From assembly GCA_963666975.2 (NCBI GenBank), contig CAXVYR010000004.1, positions 2,112,001 to 2,176,000 of the forward strand: DNA of 64,000 nucleotides. The letters run 5' to 3'. Position numbers and translations under genes: made by a program. Below are positions 38,361 through 55,150 of this stretch, one piece after another. Under the pieces are notes generated by a model, which had not been told where the DNA came from, did no database searches, and worked only from the letters and a program-made list of their open reading frames with translations. Within the stretch, counting starts at the first letter, position 1; each line of letters starts with the position of its first letter. The DNA comes from Terriglobia bacterium (GTDB lineage: Bacteria; Acidobacteriota; Terriglobia; 2-12-FULL-54-10).

Positions 38361-40592
38361 ATGAGTGTTAGACCAAACCGAAGGTTCTTGCGCAGCAATT
38401 GGAACGTTATTGCCACGCTGACCGTTATTACTCTGATTGCCGTGTGGATCGTATTTCCGAATGGGGGGAACCTCTCGGGAGCATCTGCGAAGGGTCGTTC
38501 CTCTTGGTGGCCGCAGACGGGGGGGCCGCAGTTGATATCCGTGCAGCCATTCCCTGAAATGGAGGGAGCCATCTGCGAATGGGTGCCGGCCAGCGCTTCG
38601 GGAAACGACACCCTCGCCGCCTCTTTTCGTCCTGCAGCCTTGCTGAACCATGCGTTGCAAGGCGCGGCACAAAGCGCCCCGGATGGTGTAAGAACCGCCA
38701 CCGAGATTGAACGCGCGCCGCTGCGGGTCATCCGGGACACCTACCCGACATACAGCGCCATCGCCGTCGACACCACCTCTAATGAAGTGTACATGCAGGA
38801 TGAGAACCTGTTCGGCTTGAAGGTGTTCAACCGTCTGGACAACACTCCGCCGAACGCCGCATTTACCGAGCCGAAGCGAGTGATTTCCGGTCCAAACACG
38901 AAGCTCGAGTTTAATTGCGGCCTGTATATAGACCAGAAGACGGGCGACGTCTATTCAGTGAACAACGACACTATGGACACCTTGACGGTGTTCGCTCGCG
39001 GGGCCAGCGGAAATGCGACGCCCAAACGGGCGCTCCACACTCCGCACGGAACCTACGGAATCGCCGTAAACGAGGCCGTGCAGGAACTGTTCCTCACCAT
39101 CGAGCACATCAACGCCGTGGTGGTGTACCGGAAGCTGGCCGACGGGGAGGAAAAGCCGCTGCGGACGCTGCGCGGGCTTCAGACTCAACTGGAGGACCCG
39201 CACGGGATCGCCGTGGACGCGAAAAACAAGTGGCTGTTCGTCGGCAACCACGGCAACCATAAACTGAGCGAGGCTCCCTGGACGGGGCGGTTTGAGCCTC
39301 CCGCGATCACGGTTTATCCGCTGGAAGCCAGCGGCGACACCGCTCCGCTGCGGGTGATCGAAGGTCCCAAGACTCAATTGAACTGGCCGTCAGCGATGTT
39401 TATCGACGAGGAGCGCCAGGAGCTGTACGTAGCCAACGATGTGGGCGACTCCATCCTGGTTTTCCGCAGCACCGACAGCGGGAACGTGGCTCCCATCCGG
39501 ATCGTCAAAGGTCCGCAAACGCAGATCAAAAACCCCACCGGCGTGTTTGTAGATTTGAAAAACGACGAGCTCTGGGCCTCCAACATGGGAAACCACCGCG
39601 CGGTGGTATTCCCCCGCTCGGCGAACGGCAACGTCGCGCCGCTGCGCGTCATCCGGAGCGCCCCGGCGGAAAAGATGGCCCTGGCCATCGGCAATCCCGG
39701 CGCTGCCGCCTATGACAGCAAACGCGAAGAGATTCTGGTTCCCAACTGAGTGGCCCACCCGCAAATTGCGATCTTCGCCAGGCTGGCGAAAGAAAATTCC
39801 AAGCCCACCCGTTTGCTTTCCGGCCAGGCAACACGGCTGGCCCGCACCATGCACGACATCCGCTATGACGCGATCCACGATGAAATAATCGTGCCGAACC
39901 CTTTCGCACAAGCGATCCTGGTTTTCCGGGGAGGCGCCGACGGCGAAGAAGCGCCGATTCGCATCATTCAGGGGCCCCATACGCTGTTGCAGGGAACGGG
40001 CGCGGCGGCGGGCGGAGTGGACCGCCTGGACGTCGATCCGGTCCACGATGAAATCTTCGTCCCCGCCGGGGAAAAGATTTTGGTGTATCCGCGGACGGGC
40101 AACGGCGACGTGCCACCGTTGCGGGTCATCGAAGGCCCCGACACCACGCTCTACAGAGCGCAAGCGATTGCCGTGGACCCGGTTCATAACGTCATCGTGG
40201 CCGGCACGCACAGGAGTTACAACAACGGTCAGGGGGCCCTGCTGATCTTCAACCGCACCGACAACGGAAACGTCAGGCCCTCCAGAATCATCATGGGACC
40301 GAAGGCGGAGATCGGCAATATGAACCAGATTTTGATCCATCCGCCCAAGGGCTGGATCGTGGCGGCACAGACGGGAAACTCCTACGGGGTGCTGGAGCCG
40401 GAAGGCGTCTATGTCGGCGTCTGGAGCATCTACGACGACGGCGACGTTCCCGCGCGCTGGAAGCTCGCCGGAGATAAGAGCCTCATTAAGAAGCCGCGCG
40501 GGATCGCGCTGAACCCCAAGAACAAAGAGCTGATCGTCGCCGACATGCGGCTCAATGCGATGTTGACGTTTTACTTCCCGGAGATTTTTTAG
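38361..40592 (+). CDS. Exported multi-blade beta-propeller (NHL/YVTN-like), probably one 743-aa protein with in-frame TGA (Sec?) at 39747-39749
   Basis: ORFs 38361-39749 and 39750-40592 are contiguous and in frame; the junction lies inside a repeat; same TGA in the paralog. Confidence 0.8.
39774..39790 (+). promoter_or_regulatory. Candidate bacterial SECIS / recoding hairpin
   Basis: TTCGCCA-GGC-TGGCGAA perfect stem; loop begins 31 nt after TGA; identical in the paralog. Confidence 0.7.
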
Positions 40593-40824: not shown

Positions 40825-40988
40825 GTTTTTTCGGATACGGTCTTAGAAGAACATATGTTTGGCGGAACTATGTTTGATGGGTGGGCGGCCTAAAAAATGC
40901 GGACAGTCCCGACATTTCATTTCCTTGACACGAATCGTCTCTTGTGTTCGAACCTAGCCACCCGATCATCGGAGGACGCGTGAACACC

Positions 40989-42203
40989 ATGAAATCCAGC
41001 CGCCGGCGTTTCTTGAAGGATGGCGCCATACTGACCGGTTTGGTCGCCGGGACAGTGCAATCTGCAAGCGGACAAACGCCCGGCCCCGAGGAAGCCGCCC
41101 ATCGCTCGGCTGGCTTTGTGCGCGCGATTGGCGAGCGATCACGTCTTGAAACCTCGGCACGCGCGTGGTCTGATTCTTCCACGGGCCGCGTGACTTCGTC
41201 GCTGACTCCGCTGCAAAACTCCAAAGGAATGATCACGCCTTCGATGCTTCATTTTGAACGCCACCACGCGCGTGTCCCGGACATCGACCCCCGTCAGTAT
41301 CGTCTCCTGATCCACGGCCTGGTGGATCGCCCGCTGATTTTTACAGTGGCGGAGTTGGAGCGCCTGCCTTCCGTATCGCGGATCTATTTCCTCGAATGCT
41401 CGGGCAATAGCCGCAATCCGGGCCGGGGAAACGCGGAGACAGTCCAGGGAACCCACGGCATGACCAGTTGCAGCGAATGGACGGGGGTCCCGCTGTCCCT
41501 GTTGCTCCAAGAGGCGGGGGTGCAAAAGGGGGCAAGCTGGCTGGTGGCGGAGGGCGCAGACGCAGCCAAAATGACGCGGAGCATTCCGCTCACGAAGGCC
41601 ATGGACGACATTCTGGTGGCCTACGGGCAAAATGGCGGGGCGCTTCGTCCTGAGCAGGGCTACCCGTTGCGGCTGCTGATCCCCGGATGGGAAGGAAACA
41701 TCAGCATCAAGTGGCTGCGGCAAATCAAGGTGGTGGACCAGCCCTATATGACAAGAGAAGAAACCTCCCGCTACACCGACCTGATGCCGGATGGCCGCGC
41801 GCGCCAGTTCACTTTTGAGATGGACGCTAAATCAGTCATCACATTTCCTTCCGGCGGACAGAATCTGCCGGGCCCCGGATTCTACGAAATCACGGGCCTG
41901 GCTTGGTCCGGCAGAGGCGCAATCCGCAGGGTGGAAGTATCCACCGACGGCGGCGCGTCCTGGCAGGACGCCCAGCTTCAGGAGCCGGTACTGCGATTCG
42001 CGCATACCCGGTTTCGCTTCGCCTGGAAATGGGACGGCGGCGAGGCCGTGGTCCAGTCCCGCTGCATCGATGAGCAGGGTGGGGTTCAGCCGACCGTGGA
42101 CGATCTGATCCGGGTCCGGGGAAGGAGCTATAATTATCACTCCAACCACATTCAAGCCTGGAAGATCAACCGTAATGGAAGCGTGCAAAATGCGCTGGTC
42201 TGA
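40989..42203 (+). CDS. soxC: Tat-exported sulfite oxidase-family molybdoenzyme (SoxC/SorA-like)
   Basis: SRRRFLK Tat motif; LHFERHH, FLECSGN, EQGYPLRL, IKWL, GLAWSG. Confidence 0.88.
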   Translation: MKSSRRRFLKDGAILTGLVAGTVQSASGQTPGPEEAAHRSAGFVRAIGERSRLETSARAWSDSSTGRVTSSLTPLQNSKGMITPSMLHFERHHARVPDIDPRQYRLLIHGLVDRPLIFTVAELERLPSVSRIYFLECSGNSRNPGRGNAETVQGTHGMTSCSEWTGVPLSLLLQEAGVQKGASWLVAEGADAAKMTRSIPLTKAMDDILVAYGQNGGALRPEQGYPLRLLIPGWEGNISIKWLRQIKVVDQPYMTREETSRYTDLMPDGRARQFTFEMDAKSVITFPSGGQNLPGPGFYEITGLAWSGRGAIRRVEVSTDGGASWQDAQLQEPVLRFAHTRFRFAWKWDGGEAVVQSRCIDEQGGVQPTVDDLIRVRGRSYNYHSNHIQAWKINRNGSVQNALV

Positions 42204-42744
42204 TCTTTTGATCCCGGCAGTTTTCTTGGTTGTCTGCGCCGCGGCGCAGGCGCAGTCGCCCGCCTATGGCGTGGGCAGAACGCCGAGCGCCAAAGCAATT
42301 CGTGCGTGGGACATCGCCATTGGACCCGAGGGAAAGGAACTTCCGCCAGGAAAAGGAACCGCGAAAGAAGGCGCCACGATCTACGCACAGCGGTGTGCGG
42401 CGTGCCACGGGCAGACGGGAACGGAAGGACCGTTCAGCCGCTTAGTGGGCGGCCAAGGAACACTGAACACCAATCGCCCTGTAAAGACGGTTGGAAGCTA
42501 CTGGCCATTTGCCACGACGATATGGGATTACATCAACCGCGCCATGCCCGACGATAAACCGGGATCGCTGAGCGCAGACCAAGTTTACGCGGTGACGGCG
42601 TTTCTCCTCTACCGGAATGGCATCATCCAGGAAAGCGACGTAATCGACGCCAAAAGTTTGCCGAAAATCCAAATGCCGAATCGCAATGGATTTGTTTCCG
42701 ATCCACGGCCGGATTGGAAAACGCCGTCTGGCGGTCGTAACTGA
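42190..42744 (+). CDS. soxD: Monoheme cytochrome c (SoxD-like)
   Basis: Signal peptide; WDIAIGPEG, CAACH, GSYWPFATTIWDYINRAMP, MPNRNGF. Confidence 0.88.
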   Translation: MRWSDLLIPAVFLVVCAAAQAQSPAYGVGRTPSAKAIRAWDIAIGPEGKELPPGKGTAKEGATIYAQRCAACHGQTGTEGPFSRLVGGQGTLNTNRPVKTVGSYWPFATTIWDYINRAMPDDKPGSLSADQVYAVTAFLLYRNGIIQESDVIDAKSLPKIQMPNRNGFVSDPRPDWKTPSGGRN

Positions 42745-42801: not shown

Positions 42802-43887
42802 TTGCTTATAAATCCATCCGAGCCGCGAGACGAAAAGAAAACCCTCGAGCAATTCGACGCGGAATTAGCAAAGCTCCATATGCGCGGCCAGTGGAAGGCC
42901 GATGAACTGCTGGTCCAAACGATAGGCGGGCCGAAACCGGGAGGGAGCCCTTGCGTCTGGAAATGGTCCGCAGTCCATCCGCTGCTGCTGGAAGCGTGCG
43001 ATGTGCTGCCGGAAAGTTTCACGGCCCGACGTCACCTAGGCTTTATAAATCCCGGGCTGGAGCGGGGAGGAGCCACCCACACCATCCGCATGGGGCTGCA
43101 AATGGTGAGGCCGGGGGAGATCGCATGGGCTCACCGGCACACCATCGCAGCGCTTCGCTTTGTGGTCGCAGGGAGCAATCAGGCATACACCGTCGTCGAT
43201 GGCGAGGTCTGCCCCATGGAAAACTACGATTTGATTCTGACCCCGCAGTGGAGCTGGCACGATCATCACAACGAAAGCGGCGAAAACATCATCTGGCTGG
43301 ACGTTCTCGACGCCTCGTTGATTGCCTCGCTGAACGCAACGTTCTACGAGCCGTACGGGGAAAAACGCCAGCAAGTGAGGCGGTCCGGTGAGGAAGGCTT
43401 CCTTCCGGAGCGGGCAGGAGCCCAGCAACTGCCGCTGCGATACCCGTGGAGCGAAGCGGAGAAGCTGCTTGAAAAAATGGCGCACCTGGAAGGAAGCTCT
43501 TACGACGGTCTCTCCCTGGAGTATGTGAACCCCATGACGGGCGGCCCTGCGCTGCCGACACTGGGGTGCCGGGTGCAGATGTTGCGGCCGGGGGAGAGCA
43601 CGCAGGCTCACCGGCACATCTCGAGCGCCGTTTATTTTGTGGTGCGAGGAGAAGGCGAAACCGTTGTGGGAGACGAGCGGCTGGAATGGAACCGGCACGA
43701 TTCCTTTGCCGTCCCCAATTGGAGCTGGCACCGGCACATCAACCGCTCGAAGACGGACGCAGCCATTCTGTTCTCCGTAAACGATACTCCCGTATTTCAG
43801 GCGCTCGGTTTATACCGGGAAGAGCCGGAGAATTCCTTGCAACAGGCGGCGGCTCCCTTAGCGCCCGCTCCATTAGCAGGTTGTTGA
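42802..43887 (+). CDS. Gentisate 1,2-dioxygenase-like bicupin
   Basis: AHRHT, WSWHDHHN, AHRH, NWSWHRH cupin motifs. Confidence 0.88.
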   Translation: MLINPSEPRDEKKTLEQFDAELAKLHMRGQWKADELLVQTIGGPKPGGSPCVWKWSAVHPLLLEACDVLPESFTARRHLGFINPGLERGGATHTIRMGLQMVRPGEIAWAHRHTIAALRFVVAGSNQAYTVVDGEVCPMENYDLILTPQWSWHDHHNESGENIIWLDVLDASLIASLNATFYEPYGEKRQQVRRSGEEGFLPERAGAQQLPLRYPWSEAEKLLEKMAHLEGSSYDGLSLEYVNPMTGGPALPTLGCRVQMLRPGESTQAHRHISSAVYFVVRGEGETVVGDERLEWNRHDSFAVPNWSWHRHINRSKTDAAILFSVNDTPVFQALGLYREEPENSLQQAAAPLAPAPLAGC

Positions 43888-50156: not shown

Positions 50157-50987
50157 TTACCCAACCACCGCCGAGAACAAGGGGATGGGTTCAATTCGCT
50201 GCTGGCGGAAATCCTGCTCGAACTGTTCCATCTCGGTAGGCGTCAGCGGATGGAGAAACTGTTCGTTTCGCTGCCGCAACTCCTGCACGTGGAGGCCGAC
50301 GACCTTCTGCCTGGCTTCTTCCAACGCTTCGAGCGGCGGGGCGGCCCGGGCCAGCTTCGGAATCATCTCCGAACCGTGGTGCAGCTCATCGGCGGCAACA
50401 CCGCGTTCATGCTTGGTGATGCGGTCGGAAAATTCATCGGTCACAGGAAGCTGCCCCATGACGTAGTGGAAGCCGACGGCGGCCCCTTCCCGGTTCATCA
50501 TGATGACGTCCCGGAGCCACTGCGAGCTTGCCTCGCGGGCCAGCTTGGCGCCCAAGTCAAAGTAGCCGTAATGCTCCGGCCAAAGAGCTTTTTTCATCCC
50601 CGGACCCGGCGCAAAGGCGTCGGAAACGTCTCCATACCCCCACATTTCCGGCACCTCGCAGGGCTTGCCATCCAAGTACCAGTTGAGAATCCGCATGTAA
50701 CCAAAATAATGTTCTGCCTCCTCAAAGCTGTCGGTGCTCGACTTCTGGATACTCTCGAGCGGCTCCATGTTTTTAGCCTTGCGGAACATCATGCCAGAGT
50801 GGAAAACCATCGCGCCGTATTCTTTGGTGGTCTGCAAAGCCAGCCAGTTCACGTCCCGGTCCCGATTCCTCCGCTCCGAGTACGCCAGAGCCAGCCGCTT
50901 CGCAGCCCCCGTGTAGCGCTCGATCATCCTCGCCAGTTCCTCGCGGACAAACTTTTCGTCCATCTCATTCTTTCTATCCAGCGCCAT
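50157..50987 (-). CDS. Ferritin-like / di-iron four-helix-bundle protein of unknown function
   Basis: KE...EEAEH...REG...DELHH carboxylate/ExxH pattern; GGAAGGT RBS. Confidence 0.7.
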   Translation of the reverse strand: MALDRKNEMDEKFVREELARMIERYTGAAKRLALAYSERRNRDRDVNWLALQTTKEYGAMVFHSGMMFRKAKNMEPLESIQKSSTDSFEEAEHYFGYMRILNWYLDGKPCEVPEMWGYGDVSDAFAPGPGMKKALWPEHYGYFDLGAKLAREASSQWLRDVIMMNREGAAVGFHYVMGQLPVTDEFSDRITKHERGVAADELHHGSEMIPKLARAAPPLEALEEARQKVVGLHVQELRQRNEQFLHPLTPTEMEQFEQDFRQQRIEPIPLFSAVVG

Positions 50988-51046: not shown

Positions 51047-53281
51047 TCAAAAAATCTCCGGGAAATAATACGTCAGCACGGAGTTGAGCCTCATGTCCGC
51101 CACGATGATCTCTTTGGTCCTCGGATTCAAGGCCACGCCGCGAGGTCTTTCAATCGTGCTTTGGGGTCCGCCGATCTTCCACCGTGCGGGAATATCGCCG
51201 TGATCGCGAATGCTCCAGACACCGATAAAAGCGCCCTCCGGCGTCGCCGCCGCCCAGTCGGTGGATTGAGGAATGATGATCCAGCCGCGGGGCGGATAGA
51301 CCTGGATCTGCTCCACGATGGAGATTTCTGTCGCAGGCCCGCGAATGATGCCTCGCGGCTGCACATTGCCATTGTCGGTGCGGTTGAAGATCAGCAGGGC
51401 CCCGCTTCCCCTGCCGCCTCCGTATTCGGTGAGCTTATTGAGCCCCACCACCACCACGTCGTTGACCGGATCAACCGCGACGCTGTTGGCGTTGCGCAAT
51501 TGGGTCGCGGGACCTCGGATCACCCGGATGGGGGCAACATTCCCATTCGCTTCCCTGGGGAAGACCAGTACTGAATCCCGGTTGGGGACGAATATTTCAT
51601 TGTTGATCGGGTCCACGTCCAGCCGGTCCGGCCTCTTCAACTGGGTGCGGGAACCCTGAATGATCCGGATCGGCGCCTCTTCCCCTGTAGCTCCGCCTCG
51701 GAATGTCAGAATCGTCTGGCCGAACTGATTCGGCACCAGGATTTCATCATGAACCGCATCATAGCGGATATCGTGCATGGTTCGTGCCAGCAGCGTCTTT
51801 TGTCCTGCCAGCAATCGATGGGCGGTTGCTGTCCCGTTCGCCAGCCTGGCGAAGGCCGCAATCTGCGGATGGGCCACTCAGTTGGGCACCAGAAGCTCAT
51901 CCCGCTTGGAGTCATAGGCCACACCCCCCGGATTGCCGATCGCCATCGCCACTTTTCCGAGCGGCGCACTGCGGATGGTGCGCAGCGGCGCGGCATTCCC
52001 GTTCGCCGTGCGCCGGTAAATGGTGGCCGAATGGTTGCCCATATTGGAGACCACCACCTCGTCGTTTTTGTTGTCCACATAAATGCCGGTGGGGTTTCGC
52101 AGGCCGGTTGCGGAACCTTCGAGGACCCGGAGAGGCGCTACGTTGCCGCTATCGGTCGCGCGGAAGACCAGGATCGAATCCGCTCCGTCATTGGCGACAA
52201 ACAGTTCCCCGTGCTCCCGGTCCAGATAGATTTGTCCCGGCCAGTTCAACTGCGTCCGGGAGCCTTGGATGACCCGCAACGGTGCGGCGTCTCCGCTGGC
52301 GGTCCGCTCGTGCACGGTGATCGAGGGAGGCAGTGTTTTTCCGCTGCCCGGCACCGCCCTGCTTCGAGTCAGCGGCCAGTTCTCCCGGCCGGGATTCCCG
52401 GCGTCCTCCCGCACTTGATGAACCGAGCCGTGATTGGCCACAAAGATCCAATCATTCTCCGGGTCCACGGCAATCCCATGAGGATCGGCGAGACCGGCAC
52501 GATCCCCCTGGATGAGGCGGATCGGGCCGTCTTCCCCTTGCGCCATCTTGGGATAAACCACCACGGCGCTGTCGTGCTCCACCGTCAGAAACATTTCCTG
52601 GTTTTCTTCGTCCACTGCGATGCCGTAGGTTCCGTGCGGAGTGTGAAGTTCGCGGTCGGGAGGAACGTCGCCCCGCGCCTGGCGGGAAAAGATGACCAAT
52701 GTATCCATGGTGTCGTTGTTGACCGAATAGATGTCCCCATTTGCCGGATCCACATAGAGCCCGCAGTTAAACTCCACCTTGGTCCTGTGCCCGCCGATTA
52801 CGCGCTTCGGCTCGGTCATAGTAGCTGTCGGCGGAGTATTGGCCTCTCGGTCATACACCATGATTTGGAAGAGGTTCTCGTCCTGCAGAATGATCTCATC
52901 CCTCACAGGATCAACGGCCACGGCGCTGAAGGTTGGATAAGTATCCTTGATCGCCCGCACGGGAGCGCGGTCGGCGTCGATGGAAGCTCCCCCGTCATTG
53001 GCGTTCTCTGCGAACACTCGCTCCTGCCGCAGAGCAGCCACCAGCCGGCTCTGCGAACTGGCCGGAACCCACTCGCACATGGCGCTGCCAGCGGCGGGCA
53101 TGGGCTCAACCGAGACCAGTTGAGCGAAGCCCGAGGGTCTCCGCAGAGCCGCCTGGGAGCTCGCCTGGAAAGCAGGCTGCTCCGTGTCCCCGGCTGAAAT
53201 GATCCATCCGGCGCTAACGGCCATTGCAGCGAGAATCGCAATGACACCCGGACGCCATCCAGATTGGTTGCTACGCGGCAT
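51047..53281 (-). CDS. Exported beta-propeller paralog 2, probably one 744-aa protein with in-frame TGA (Sec?) at 51878-51880
   Basis: ORFs 51878-53281 and 51047-51877 are contiguous and in frame; DELLVPN-TGA-VAHPQIAAFARLA. Confidence 0.8.
51837..51853 (-). promoter_or_regulatory. Candidate bacterial SECIS / recoding hairpin (paralog 2)
   Basis: Minus strand TTCGCCAGGCTGGCGAA; same sequence and spacing as 39774-39790. Confidence 0.7.
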
Positions 53282-53731: not shown

Positions 53732-55150
53732 CTATACAATTCCGATCAGGGGCCAATACACCGTTACCAGCAAGAACAGAAGAACCCAGTCCACGACCAG
53801 GAAGAATGCAGCAAACTTCAACACGTCCCGGGAGCCATAACAGCCAAATGTATAGCCGGCAATCAATACGAGCGACTGATAGATGAAAAGCTTTCCGCTG
53901 GCGGAAAAACTCCAGATCATACCCACCGCCAGCGGATTCAAGTTATTGTTCACGGCATAATCCATCACCACCGGCAAGGTGACGGCGATGTTGGCGGTCT
54001 GGGAGGCCAGCAGGAGGTGCGAGACAAAAGCAAGCCAATAGAGGACCAGCGCGGAATGCGATACTTCCTGCAAATAGGGAGCTATGTGCCGGAACACGCC
54101 ATCGGCCATCAGCTGCAGCATCTGTGTATCGCGCAACGCGCCGCCCATGCTGATCGTCGCGCCCATGAAGATGAAGATGAAGAAGTTGATTTTTTTTGTA
54201 TTCTCCGCGGTCAAGACCCCGATGCCGGGCAGAGTCGCCGCCAGACCGACTCCCAGCCCCACCATCGCCGGGCTGATGTGGTGCAGCATATCCGTGGCCC
54301 AGATCGCGATGGCGATTGAGGTCAGAATAGCGGCCCGCTTTTCCTTCCCGCTCCAGGGGCCCAGAAGCTGCAACTGCTCCCGCAGGAACTCCCTTCCTCC
54401 GGGCAACTCCTTTTTCTCCGGAGGGTACAGACGCAGCACCAGCCACCAGACCGCAACCGTATAAAAGATATCCAGCGGCAAATACGCAATGAACCACTGG
54501 CTCCAGTACACGGGCACATTGCCGTGTTCAATGATTAAAGACCGCGCCAGGATGGCGGGCGTGCTGCCGATGATGCACTTGTCAAATAGGGTGGCGCAAA
54601 AGACAACCGCCAGCATCATGCCTTTGGCGACATTGCTCTTCCGGTCCAATCCAAAGCTGGATACCACGCCCATGACGATCGTGCCGAGCAAAATCACACG
54701 GGGCGGCCCCGCCGGAACCAGGAAGGTCAGCACAAAATCAGTGAGGATAAAGGCGAGCAGGATGTTTGAAAAAGAGGTGCCCACACGGGAGAGAATCGTA
54801 AAGGCGAGCCGCCGGGCCAGTCCGCTTTCGGTTACCATGGCGGCGATGAAAAGCGCTCCCAGCAGGAACCAGGGCGCCTCGCTGGTGAAGCCGCTAAACG
54901 CGATGCGGGAGGGAACCACCTGGAGAGCCCAGAACAGCCAGCAGCCGAGCAAGCCCGTCATGGCATGGGGAATCACCTCCCCGATCCAGAAGATCACCAT
55001 GAAACAGGTGATCGCCAGGGCGTGCTGGGGGCGCGGATCCAGCGGCAACGGCGCAAACCATAAAACTGCAAGCGTGAGAACGCCCAGGGCCGCCCCAGCA
55101 AGCTTTCCCTTCGGCATCGGAACCGATTCGTTGACTGCTTCGCCGGTCAC
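53732..55150 (-). CDS. SLC13/DASS-family anion/dicarboxylate transporter
   Basis: Many TM segments; AFSGF, ESGLARRLA, WSGKEKRA motifs. Confidence 0.88.
   Translation of the reverse strand: MTGEAVNESVPMPKGKLAGAALGVLTLAVLWFAPLPLDPRPQHALAITCFMVIFWIGEVIPHAMTGLLGCWLFWALQVVPSRIAFSGFTSEAPWFLLGALFIAAMVTESGLARRLAFTILSRVGTSFSNILLAFILTDFVLTFLVPAGPPRVILLGTIVMGVVSSFGLDRKSNVAKGMMLAVVFCATLFDKCIIGSTPAILARSLIIEHGNVPVYWSQWFIAYLPLDIFYTVAVWWLVLRLYPPEKKELPGGREFLREQLQLLGPWSGKEKRAAILTSIAIAIWATDMLHHISPAMVGLGVGLAATLPGIGVLTAENTKKINFFIFIFMGATISMGGALRDTQMLQLMADGVFRHIAPYLQEVSHSALVLYWLAFVSHLLLASQTANIAVTLPVVMDYAVNNNLNPLAVGMIWSFSASGKLFIYQSLVLIAGYTFGCYGSRDVLKFAAFFLVVDWVLLFLLVTVYWPLIGIV

Follow-up and report, generated by a model that had tools for sequence, protein, structure and literature searches.

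The selenocysteine insertion sequence (SECIS) of Escherichia coli fdhF, which is read while the ribosome stands at the UGA codon, is the experimental prototype of the bacterial elements (bSECIS) that direct selenocysteine (Sec) incorporation. Here we describe a hairpin that follows an in-frame TGA in two paralogous double beta-propeller genes of a Terriglobia bacterium (Acidobacteriota). Both genes lie in the window, by which we mean the whole stretch of 64,000 nt that was analysed (GenBank assembly GCA_963666975.2, contig CAXVYR010000004.1, positions 2,112,001 to 2,176,000 of the forward strand). The propeller hairpin resembles the fdhF element in being a stem-loop of the SelB type with conserved G and U-type apical bases. 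The fdhF element, however, lies nearer to its UGA, and its stem contains a bulged U; no bulge is conserved in the propeller hairpin.

The consensus bSECIS model is that of Zhang and Gladyshev, as summarised in the legend of Fig. 2 of PMC13188914. As given there, a loop of 3-9 nt is carried by an upper stem of 4-16 bp, a G is present in the first two loop positions (mostly as G[G|U]) and is flanked by the closing pair, the spacing from the UGA is 16-37 nt, and the minimum free energy (MFE) is -7.5 kcal/mol or lower. The original prediction had stated that the hairpin fits the general bacterial model, and both window copies agree with this legend in loop and stem size (3 nt on 7 bp), loop sequence (GGC), spacing (31 nt) and energy (-9.1 and -8.8 kcal/mol). 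As in the model, the propeller hairpin is intragenic, follows directly upon the UGA and presents a G and then a G or U in a small loop on a stem of 7-9 bp. It differs in its spacing, which lies toward the long end of the range, in a short additional helix, under selection in Sec forms only, between the UGA and the main stem, and in the GTG codon that nearly always follows the UGA.

The prokaryotic selenoproteins listed in Table 1 of PMC13188914 share with the propeller protein a single Sec per protein, the existence of cysteine (Cys) homologs and an intragenic SECIS. Unlike them, the propeller protein has a Sec context, N-U-V-A-H-P, that matches none of the Sec-related motifs listed in that paper; it is also large, starts with a hydrophobic helix and exists in nine copies in the source genome. 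Among the 119 selenoprotein families of this 2026 table, none is of propeller, NHL or lactonase-like type. Nor are the words propeller, NHL or lactonase used in the main text of the BSepDB or the deep-Sep paper, though their supplementary lists might include the family, and full-text literature searches returned no paper on a propeller selenoprotein family. The Sec propeller proteins are thus very probably a family that is not in current selenoprotein catalogues. The comparisons reported below give good support to the view that a bSECIS of ordinary type serves this uncatalogued, multi-copy family, and the hairpin, whose stem has 7 bp here and 9 bp in most relatives and ends in an A-GGN-U apex 31 nt after the UGA, is very likely that element.

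The hairpin in the two window copies

The features of the two genes are as follows.

38361-40592, + strand: copy 1, double beta-propeller gene; single frame of 743 residues with one in-frame TGA (U463); product membrane-anchored or exported
39747-39749, + strand: UGA of copy 1, putative Sec codon, from the TGA/Cys alternation at homologous sites and the Sec machinery of the genome
39759-39771, + strand: upstream mini-stem of copy 1, CGCA-AAT-TGCG at 39760-39770; 4 bp (39760-39763 with 39767-39770), loop AAU, -3.5 kcal/mol
39772-39792, + strand: main hairpin of copy 1, candidate SECIS; stem 39774-39780 with 39784-39790, apical loop GGC at 39781-39783, -9.1 kcal/mol
51047-53281, - strand: copy 2, paralog of copy 1; 744 residues in a single frame with the TGA read as Sec (U468)
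51878-51880, - strand: UGA of copy 2, putative Sec codon, homologous to the site in copy 1
51856-51868, - strand: upstream mini-stem of copy 2, CCGCA-GAT-TGCGG; 5 bp, loop GAU, -5.3 kcal/mol
51837-51853, - strand: main hairpin of copy 2, candidate SECIS; same 17 nt as copy 1, loop GGC at 51846-51844, -8.8 kcal/mol

An identical hairpin, TTCGCCA-GGC-TGGCGAA, had been proposed to start 24 nt after the TGA in both paralogs and to carry a G-first triloop 31 nt downstream. It was indeed found at 39774-39790 and at 51853-51837, with GGC as the loop of both copies. In most relatives, two further pairs (39772-39773 with 39791-39792) extend the stem to 9 bp. The exact 17-mer occurs at only these two places in the window. 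When up to two mismatches were allowed, 0.03 matches were expected by chance, and none of 100 shuffles reached the observed number of four, a palindromic site being scored on both strands so that two sites count as four. The two proteins are 55% identical. At the DNA level, the two copies share 40 of the 44 nt between the TGA and the end of the hairpin (both included) and only 8 of the 22 that follow, which bears out the statement that the hairpin is kept and the flanks differ. When folded alone, the 21-nt hairpin segments gave z-scores of -2.78 (copy 1) and -2.24 (copy 2), and 3 and 5 of 200 shuffles, respectively, were as stable.

Conservation and covariation among the Sec forms

A first search yielded 58 loci from metagenome-assembled genomes (MAGs) of Acidobacteriota, and all 77 aligned sites, including those of the source genome, carried TGA. 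In the 74 distinct rows of this set, pairing in the 7-bp helix reached 99.0% of cells, three pairs were changed on both sides, and RNAalifold made the helix longer by two pairs. The pooled set comprised 233 distinct homologous sites: 150 with TGA (hereafter Sec forms), 82 with TGC or TGT (Cys forms) and one with GCG. All 150 Sec forms have at least six of the seven stem pairs together with a G[G/U] loop, at a constant offset from the UGA in an ungapped alignment; the hairpin is therefore kept in the TGA-bearing homologs, as had been anticipated.

In the 149 distinct Sec rows, the main hairpin was paired in 95.8% of cells and four pairs were changed on both sides. When the mini-stem was included, the two-helix structure was paired in 94.3% of cells, compared with 34-52% for slid partners. 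Seven pairs and 73 cells were changed on both sides, and none of 500 shuffles equalled any of the observed measures, although kinship among sequences can by itself place them above all shuffles, even where no structure exists. One pair, 39/57 of the alignment (39773/39791 in copy 1), joins two third-codon positions and shows all four Watson-Crick types (CG 55, GC 30, AU 15, UA 10, with UG 5, GU 3 and 31 unpaired). It was paired in 119 of the 150 Sec forms, against a shuffle mean of 60.8, the observed number being reached by none of 5000 shuffles; in the Cys forms it was paired in 39 of 82, with a shuffle mean of 33.6. Furthermore, amino-acid changes were compensated in the RNA, giving CCC..GGG and GAC..GTC pairings.

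Going by record labels, Terriglobia, Bryobacterales and Vicinamibacterales are the sources of the Sec forms, together with three Binatia MAGs and one Verrucomicrobiia MAG. In an even sample of the phylum, 4 of 401 genomes (the source genome being counted) matched at E <=1e-20; the family is therefore patchy. Four distant homologs (L093, L094, L097 and L098, in genomes G163 and G364) align over the first propeller only. Their open frames of 771-1586 aa are free of stops and carry Ser codons where the alignment reaches the Sec column.

Sec forms versus Cys forms

Among the 120 best full-length database homologs, Cys occupies the Sec column in 119, so that Cys is found in homologs at the position of the UGA. 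The remaining protein (P0003) has W at this column, where the gene caller apparently read TGA as Trp. The Cys homologs keep the peptide ...PNCV(A/N)HPQIAxF(A/S)R(L/T/S)A, so that part of the nucleotide conservation is due to the peptide itself. Sec and Cys forms were compared for the hairpin itself, with the following counts.

All seven stem pairs: Sec 132/150, Cys 19/82
Outer six pairs: Sec 147/150, Cys 25/82
Loop G[G/U]: Sec 150/150, Cys 49/82
AGG at the Arg codon: Sec 136/150, Cys 33/82
MFE of -7.5 kcal/mol or lower: Sec 147/150, Cys 24/82

The hairpin is thus unequally kept, the structure being retained with the UGA and lost with Cys, with the exception of one shallow Cys clade that still has the stem. 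This contrast extends to synonymous positions. In Sec forms, the third positions of the hairpin codons (+9 to +13) have an entropy of 0.00-0.27 bits, compared with 0.64-1.58 bits in Cys forms; the two classes are similar at codons -8 to -1, +2, +3, +8 and from +15 onward. When only sites encoding the same FARLA peptide were considered, pairing was complete in 115 of 116 Sec forms and in 18 of 26 Cys forms; random synonymous codons for FARLA, drawn at the usage of the source genome, gave 2.3% of fully paired stems. The AGG codon makes up 7.7% of the Arg codons in the long open reading frames (ORFs) of this genome. The proposal of selection at the RNA level is upheld by this synonymous-site constraint, specific to Sec forms, and by the compensatory changes described above.

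The phylogenetic distribution was followed on a FastTree tree of the 205 sites (of 233) with enough flanking sequence, in which the Sec column and the residues encoded by the hairpin were masked. At least 14 changes between Sec and Cys were counted. Only 2 of 18 pure Cys clades hold fully paired hairpins, the full stem being gone in the other 16, and in several Cys clades, 0.14-0.17 away from Sec forms on the tree, the stem has already disappeared and AGG has been replaced by CGC. Supported branches provided 12 independent Sec/Cys pairs; in about 10.4 of them the hairpin followed Sec, in 0.1 it showed the opposite and in 1.5 no difference (median sign-test p 0.002, range 0.0005-0.02).

Sec machinery and the other Sec genes of the source genome

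The source genome has the complete set of factors required of a host: SelB (371.8 bits), SelA (563.5 bits), tRNA-Sec (72.8 bits, anticodon TCA) and SelD, whose gene carries its own in-frame TGA. Three more Sec genes, with U-x-x-C motifs, were recognised by a codon-score scan of all in-frame TGAs followed by a Pfam check. Their positions in the source genome, G000, are given together with that of selD.

G000:C4:1360349, + strand: selD; 7-bp stem, GGU triloop closed by an A-U pair, loop 20 nt after the UGA
G000:C4:1726991, - strand: thioredoxin; GUC triloop at 27 nt
G000:C4:419143, - strand, and C4:1108800, + strand: two AhpC/TSA genes; triloops GUG and GGA, both at 21 nt

These four Sec genes of known families all carry G[G/U]N triloops, and the propeller hairpin, with GGC at 31 nt, thus shares their type of apex. 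The comparison with selD, suggested in the original prediction, revealed the same A-GGN-U apical motif on a stem of the same 7 bp, likewise with a 3-nt loop and a closing A-U pair. The two elements differ in spacing (20 versus 31 nt), and no upstream mini-stem was noted in selD. A Sec formate dehydrogenase was also envisaged as a comparator; none was found in the source genome. In all, 13 Sec genes were detected in a non-exhaustive survey of this genome, and 9 of them encode propeller proteins. An earlier scan for AGGNT loops after in-frame TGAs gave 22 matches, against 7 for TAG and 9 for TAA; eight propeller copies were among the matches, seven others were translated and all looked non-coding, and the scan was dropped in favour of the codon-score scan.

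In other genomes, SelB was above the cut-off in five of five with TGA forms, which belong to four lineages by their record labels; with the source genome included, TGA forms co-occur with SelB in six of six. SelB was also present in four of five genomes with Cys forms. Cys forms are therefore no mark of a lost Sec trait, and this test does not discriminate.

The upstream mini-stem and the GTG codon

A second small stem had been reported just upstream of the hairpin, kept in both paralogs despite changes in its loop and flanks. It also holds in the wider set: the full set of three core pairs is present in 145 of 150 Sec forms, compared with 40 of 82 Cys forms, and GCG encodes the Ala at +7 in 143 of 146 and 43 of 74, respectively. 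In its loop, 14 nt downstream of the UGA, the first base is G in 134 and A in 15 of 149 Sec forms. The main hairpin was taken as the SelB site because this 14-nt spacing is outside the range of the model and the first loop base is variable. The mini-stem ends one column before the extended main helix, on which it may stack, and it is probably an auxiliary or spacer helix of the SECIS. In addition, the codon after the UGA (39750-39752 and 51877-51875 in the window) is under a Sec-specific synonymous constraint of its own, as GTG, with no pairing partner shown.

Proposed function and alternative explanations

In the reading that we favour, the ribosome would reach the UGA while SelB, loaded with GTP and Sec-tRNA(Sec), is tethered to the G[G/U] loop by its C-terminal domains. 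Tethered SelB would then deliver selenocysteine in place of termination, and the product would be one double beta-propeller protein of about 743 residues. The mini-stem, which abuts the main helix and is selected in Sec forms only, would probably act as a compacting spacer or as a stacking partner.

Several observations weigh against this assignment. The 60-nt contexts are no more stable than their shuffles (z -0.79 and +0.11), and the SECIS case consequently rests on comparison and not on energy. A scan of 39600-39950 against Rfam gave no family match, only one chance-level match to an IMPDH RNA (E 7.3). In the other four Sec genes of the genome the spacing is 20-27 nt, shorter than the 31 nt here. 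The conserved peptide F-A-x-x-A-[K/E/D/N/G] by itself accounts for four of the seven stem pairs. Sec sites and Cys sites were for the most part drawn from separate collections, and the phylogenetic control depends on a FastTree tree. GTG directly after the UGA, found in 142 of 150 Sec forms and 46 of 82 Cys forms, lends itself to the alternative, discussed below, of a restart at GUG. Lastly, all seven pairs are present in 19 of the 82 Cys forms, so that a stem without UGA persists at least for a while. Among the Cys sites, 17 encoding ...FARLAEGG keep the whole stem (L217, L225, L226, L229, L233-L235, L238, L242, L245, L255, L257, L261, L264, L273, L280 and L282), and 14 of them form one shallow clade of depth 0.08. 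In 6 of these 17 the loop has changed from GG to GA, which occurs in none of the 150 Sec forms. The stem of this clade may be a young fossil SECIS, as we read it; a second role of the stem is an alternative.

Four other explanations were weighed, all of them very improbable. The hairpin could be a by-product of the conserved peptide VAHPQIAxFARLA and of codon bias, with no function as RNA. The peptide is indeed conserved in Cys forms too, the Ala-Ala and Phe-Lys/Glu codons supply the four pairs just mentioned, fully paired Cys forms exist and the 60-nt z-scores are ordinary. We nevertheless consider this highly unlikely: complete pairing in 115 of 116 Sec forms with FARLA far exceeds the 2.3% obtained by synonymous resampling, a codon that serves 7.7% of Arg residues genome-wide stands at the site in 136 of 150, the CCC..GGG and GAC..GTC changes alter amino acids and preserve the RNA pairing, and the full stem has gone from 16 of 18 pure Cys clades, some of them 0.14-0.17 from Sec forms. 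It is equally hard to believe that the TGA is a true stop within a split gene, the second propeller being made by termination-reinitiation at the adjacent GTG. The excess of GTG in the TGA forms would suit such a mechanism, as would the 280-aa ORF with a GTG start that ORF finders report at 39750-40592. Yet 8 of the 150 TGA forms have GTC or GTA at this place, the eight codons upstream bear no Sec-specific constraint, for instance that of a ribosome-binding site, and a stable hairpin soon after a start codon would hinder initiation instead of helping it. The structural model, moreover, has the TGA between strands 457-461 and 469-473, and under reinitiation neither the G[G/U] loop nor the complete Sec machinery would have an explanation.

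The two remaining alternatives accept that the UGA is read through. Downstream structures can promote stop-codon readthrough, and the hairpin might in this way stimulate near-cognate decoding of the UGA by Trp, Cys or Arg without SelB. This is the least probable of the four: loop, spacing and stem match both the SelB-type model and the selD element of the same genome, SelB is present in all six genomes checked that have TGA forms, and the alternative residue is always Cys, the usual partner of Sec (82 Cys and 1 GCG beside 150 TGA). Alternatively, SelB might bind the mini-stem, the larger hairpin being accessory only. The Sec-specific constraint on the mini-stem and its mostly G-first loop speak for this, but its 14-nt spacing falls short of the 16-37 nt of the model, A takes the first loop position in 15 forms and the stem has only 3-5 bp (-3.5 to -5.3 kcal/mol), whereas a G[G/U] loop tops the main hairpin in all 150 Sec forms, as in the four other elements of the genome. 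We hold this variant to be scarcely more credible, and the main hairpin remains our candidate for the site of SelB binding.

A wider proposal, which we regard as speculative and rather doubtful, is that the propeller proteins make up a new class of exported selenoenzymes with a Sec site not of the thioredoxin type, that they are the main reason why these soil Acidobacteriota keep the Sec machinery, and that they use a lineage-specific two-helix SECIS in which the stacked mini-stem spans the 31 nt and GUG is a determinant.

The propeller protein

Pfam recognised NHL repeats and a Lactonase-type propeller in the protein. In NCBIfam release 20.0 no model was above its cut-off, the best reaching 17.6 bits against a cut-off of 400. 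The AlphaFold (AF2) model of copy 1, built from 85 aligned sequences, had a mean pLDDT of 88.4 and a pTM of 0.84, with a hydrophobic N-terminal helix (14-31) and strands all through residues 114-738. Since U463 is placed between two modelled strands (457-461 and 469-473), the TGA is located inside the propeller structure and not between domains; from the list of strands, we take these two to belong to one blade of the model. When the TGA is taken as a stop, the gene appears as two ORFs, at 38361-39749 and 39750-40592; homology, like the model, is continuous across the UGA. A few dozen residues past the Sec site N-U-V-A-H-P, an Arg, a His, an Asp and a Glu are invariant. A Foldseek search of the model against the PDB returned only generic tandem WD/propeller matches (TM <=0.34 to the query), and therefore no functional lead.

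All nine propeller copies of the source genome have the TGA and the hairpin, and one of them is internally deleted. This paralog (G000:C4:2003473-2005033) is without approximately residues 219-436; it keeps the TGA and has a hairpin with a compensated TTT..GCA variant.

A validated SECIS would allow the propeller genes to be annotated whole instead of as two ORFs. Reference genomes contain 150 distinct Sec sites and the source genome nine copies; at this size the family would be one of the larger selenoprotein families and a rare case beyond the thioredoxin-fold and molybdoenzyme types, and it would point to a hitherto unrecognised demand for selenium among the abundant Acidobacteriota of soil. 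The contrast between Sec and Cys forms, with its switches, putative fossil hairpin and Sec-only helix, offers a natural experiment on the parts of a bacterial SECIS that selection acts upon and on the speed of their decay after loss of the UGA.

Genomic neighbourhood and expression

The genes next to the two copies are the following.

40944-42203, + strand: sulfite-oxidase-like molybdoenzyme, 3' of copy 1
42175-42744, + strand: cytochrome c, 3' of copy 1
42802-43887, + strand: cupin protein, 3' of copy 1
50157-50987, - strand: 276-aa protein with no Pfam match, flanking copy 2
53732-55150, - strand: transporter of the Na/sulfate-symporter family, flanking copy 2

The neighbours of copy 1 recur only beside close relatives of the gene: the molybdoenzyme at two loci (L027 and L028), the cytochrome c at one (L028) and the cupin at another (L021). 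A conserved operon with the molybdoenzyme and cytochrome c was considered and not inferred, as they recur at only two and one close relatives.

Contigs assembled from metatranscriptomes (RNA libraries) are no proof of a single mRNA and are silent on Sec. Four such runs hold small parts of the copy 1 gene, the uncovered parts being uninformative; one of them has short exact contigs from both halves of the gene and none across its UGA. In two runs, the core formed by the TGA and the hairpin was present in contigs of relatives.

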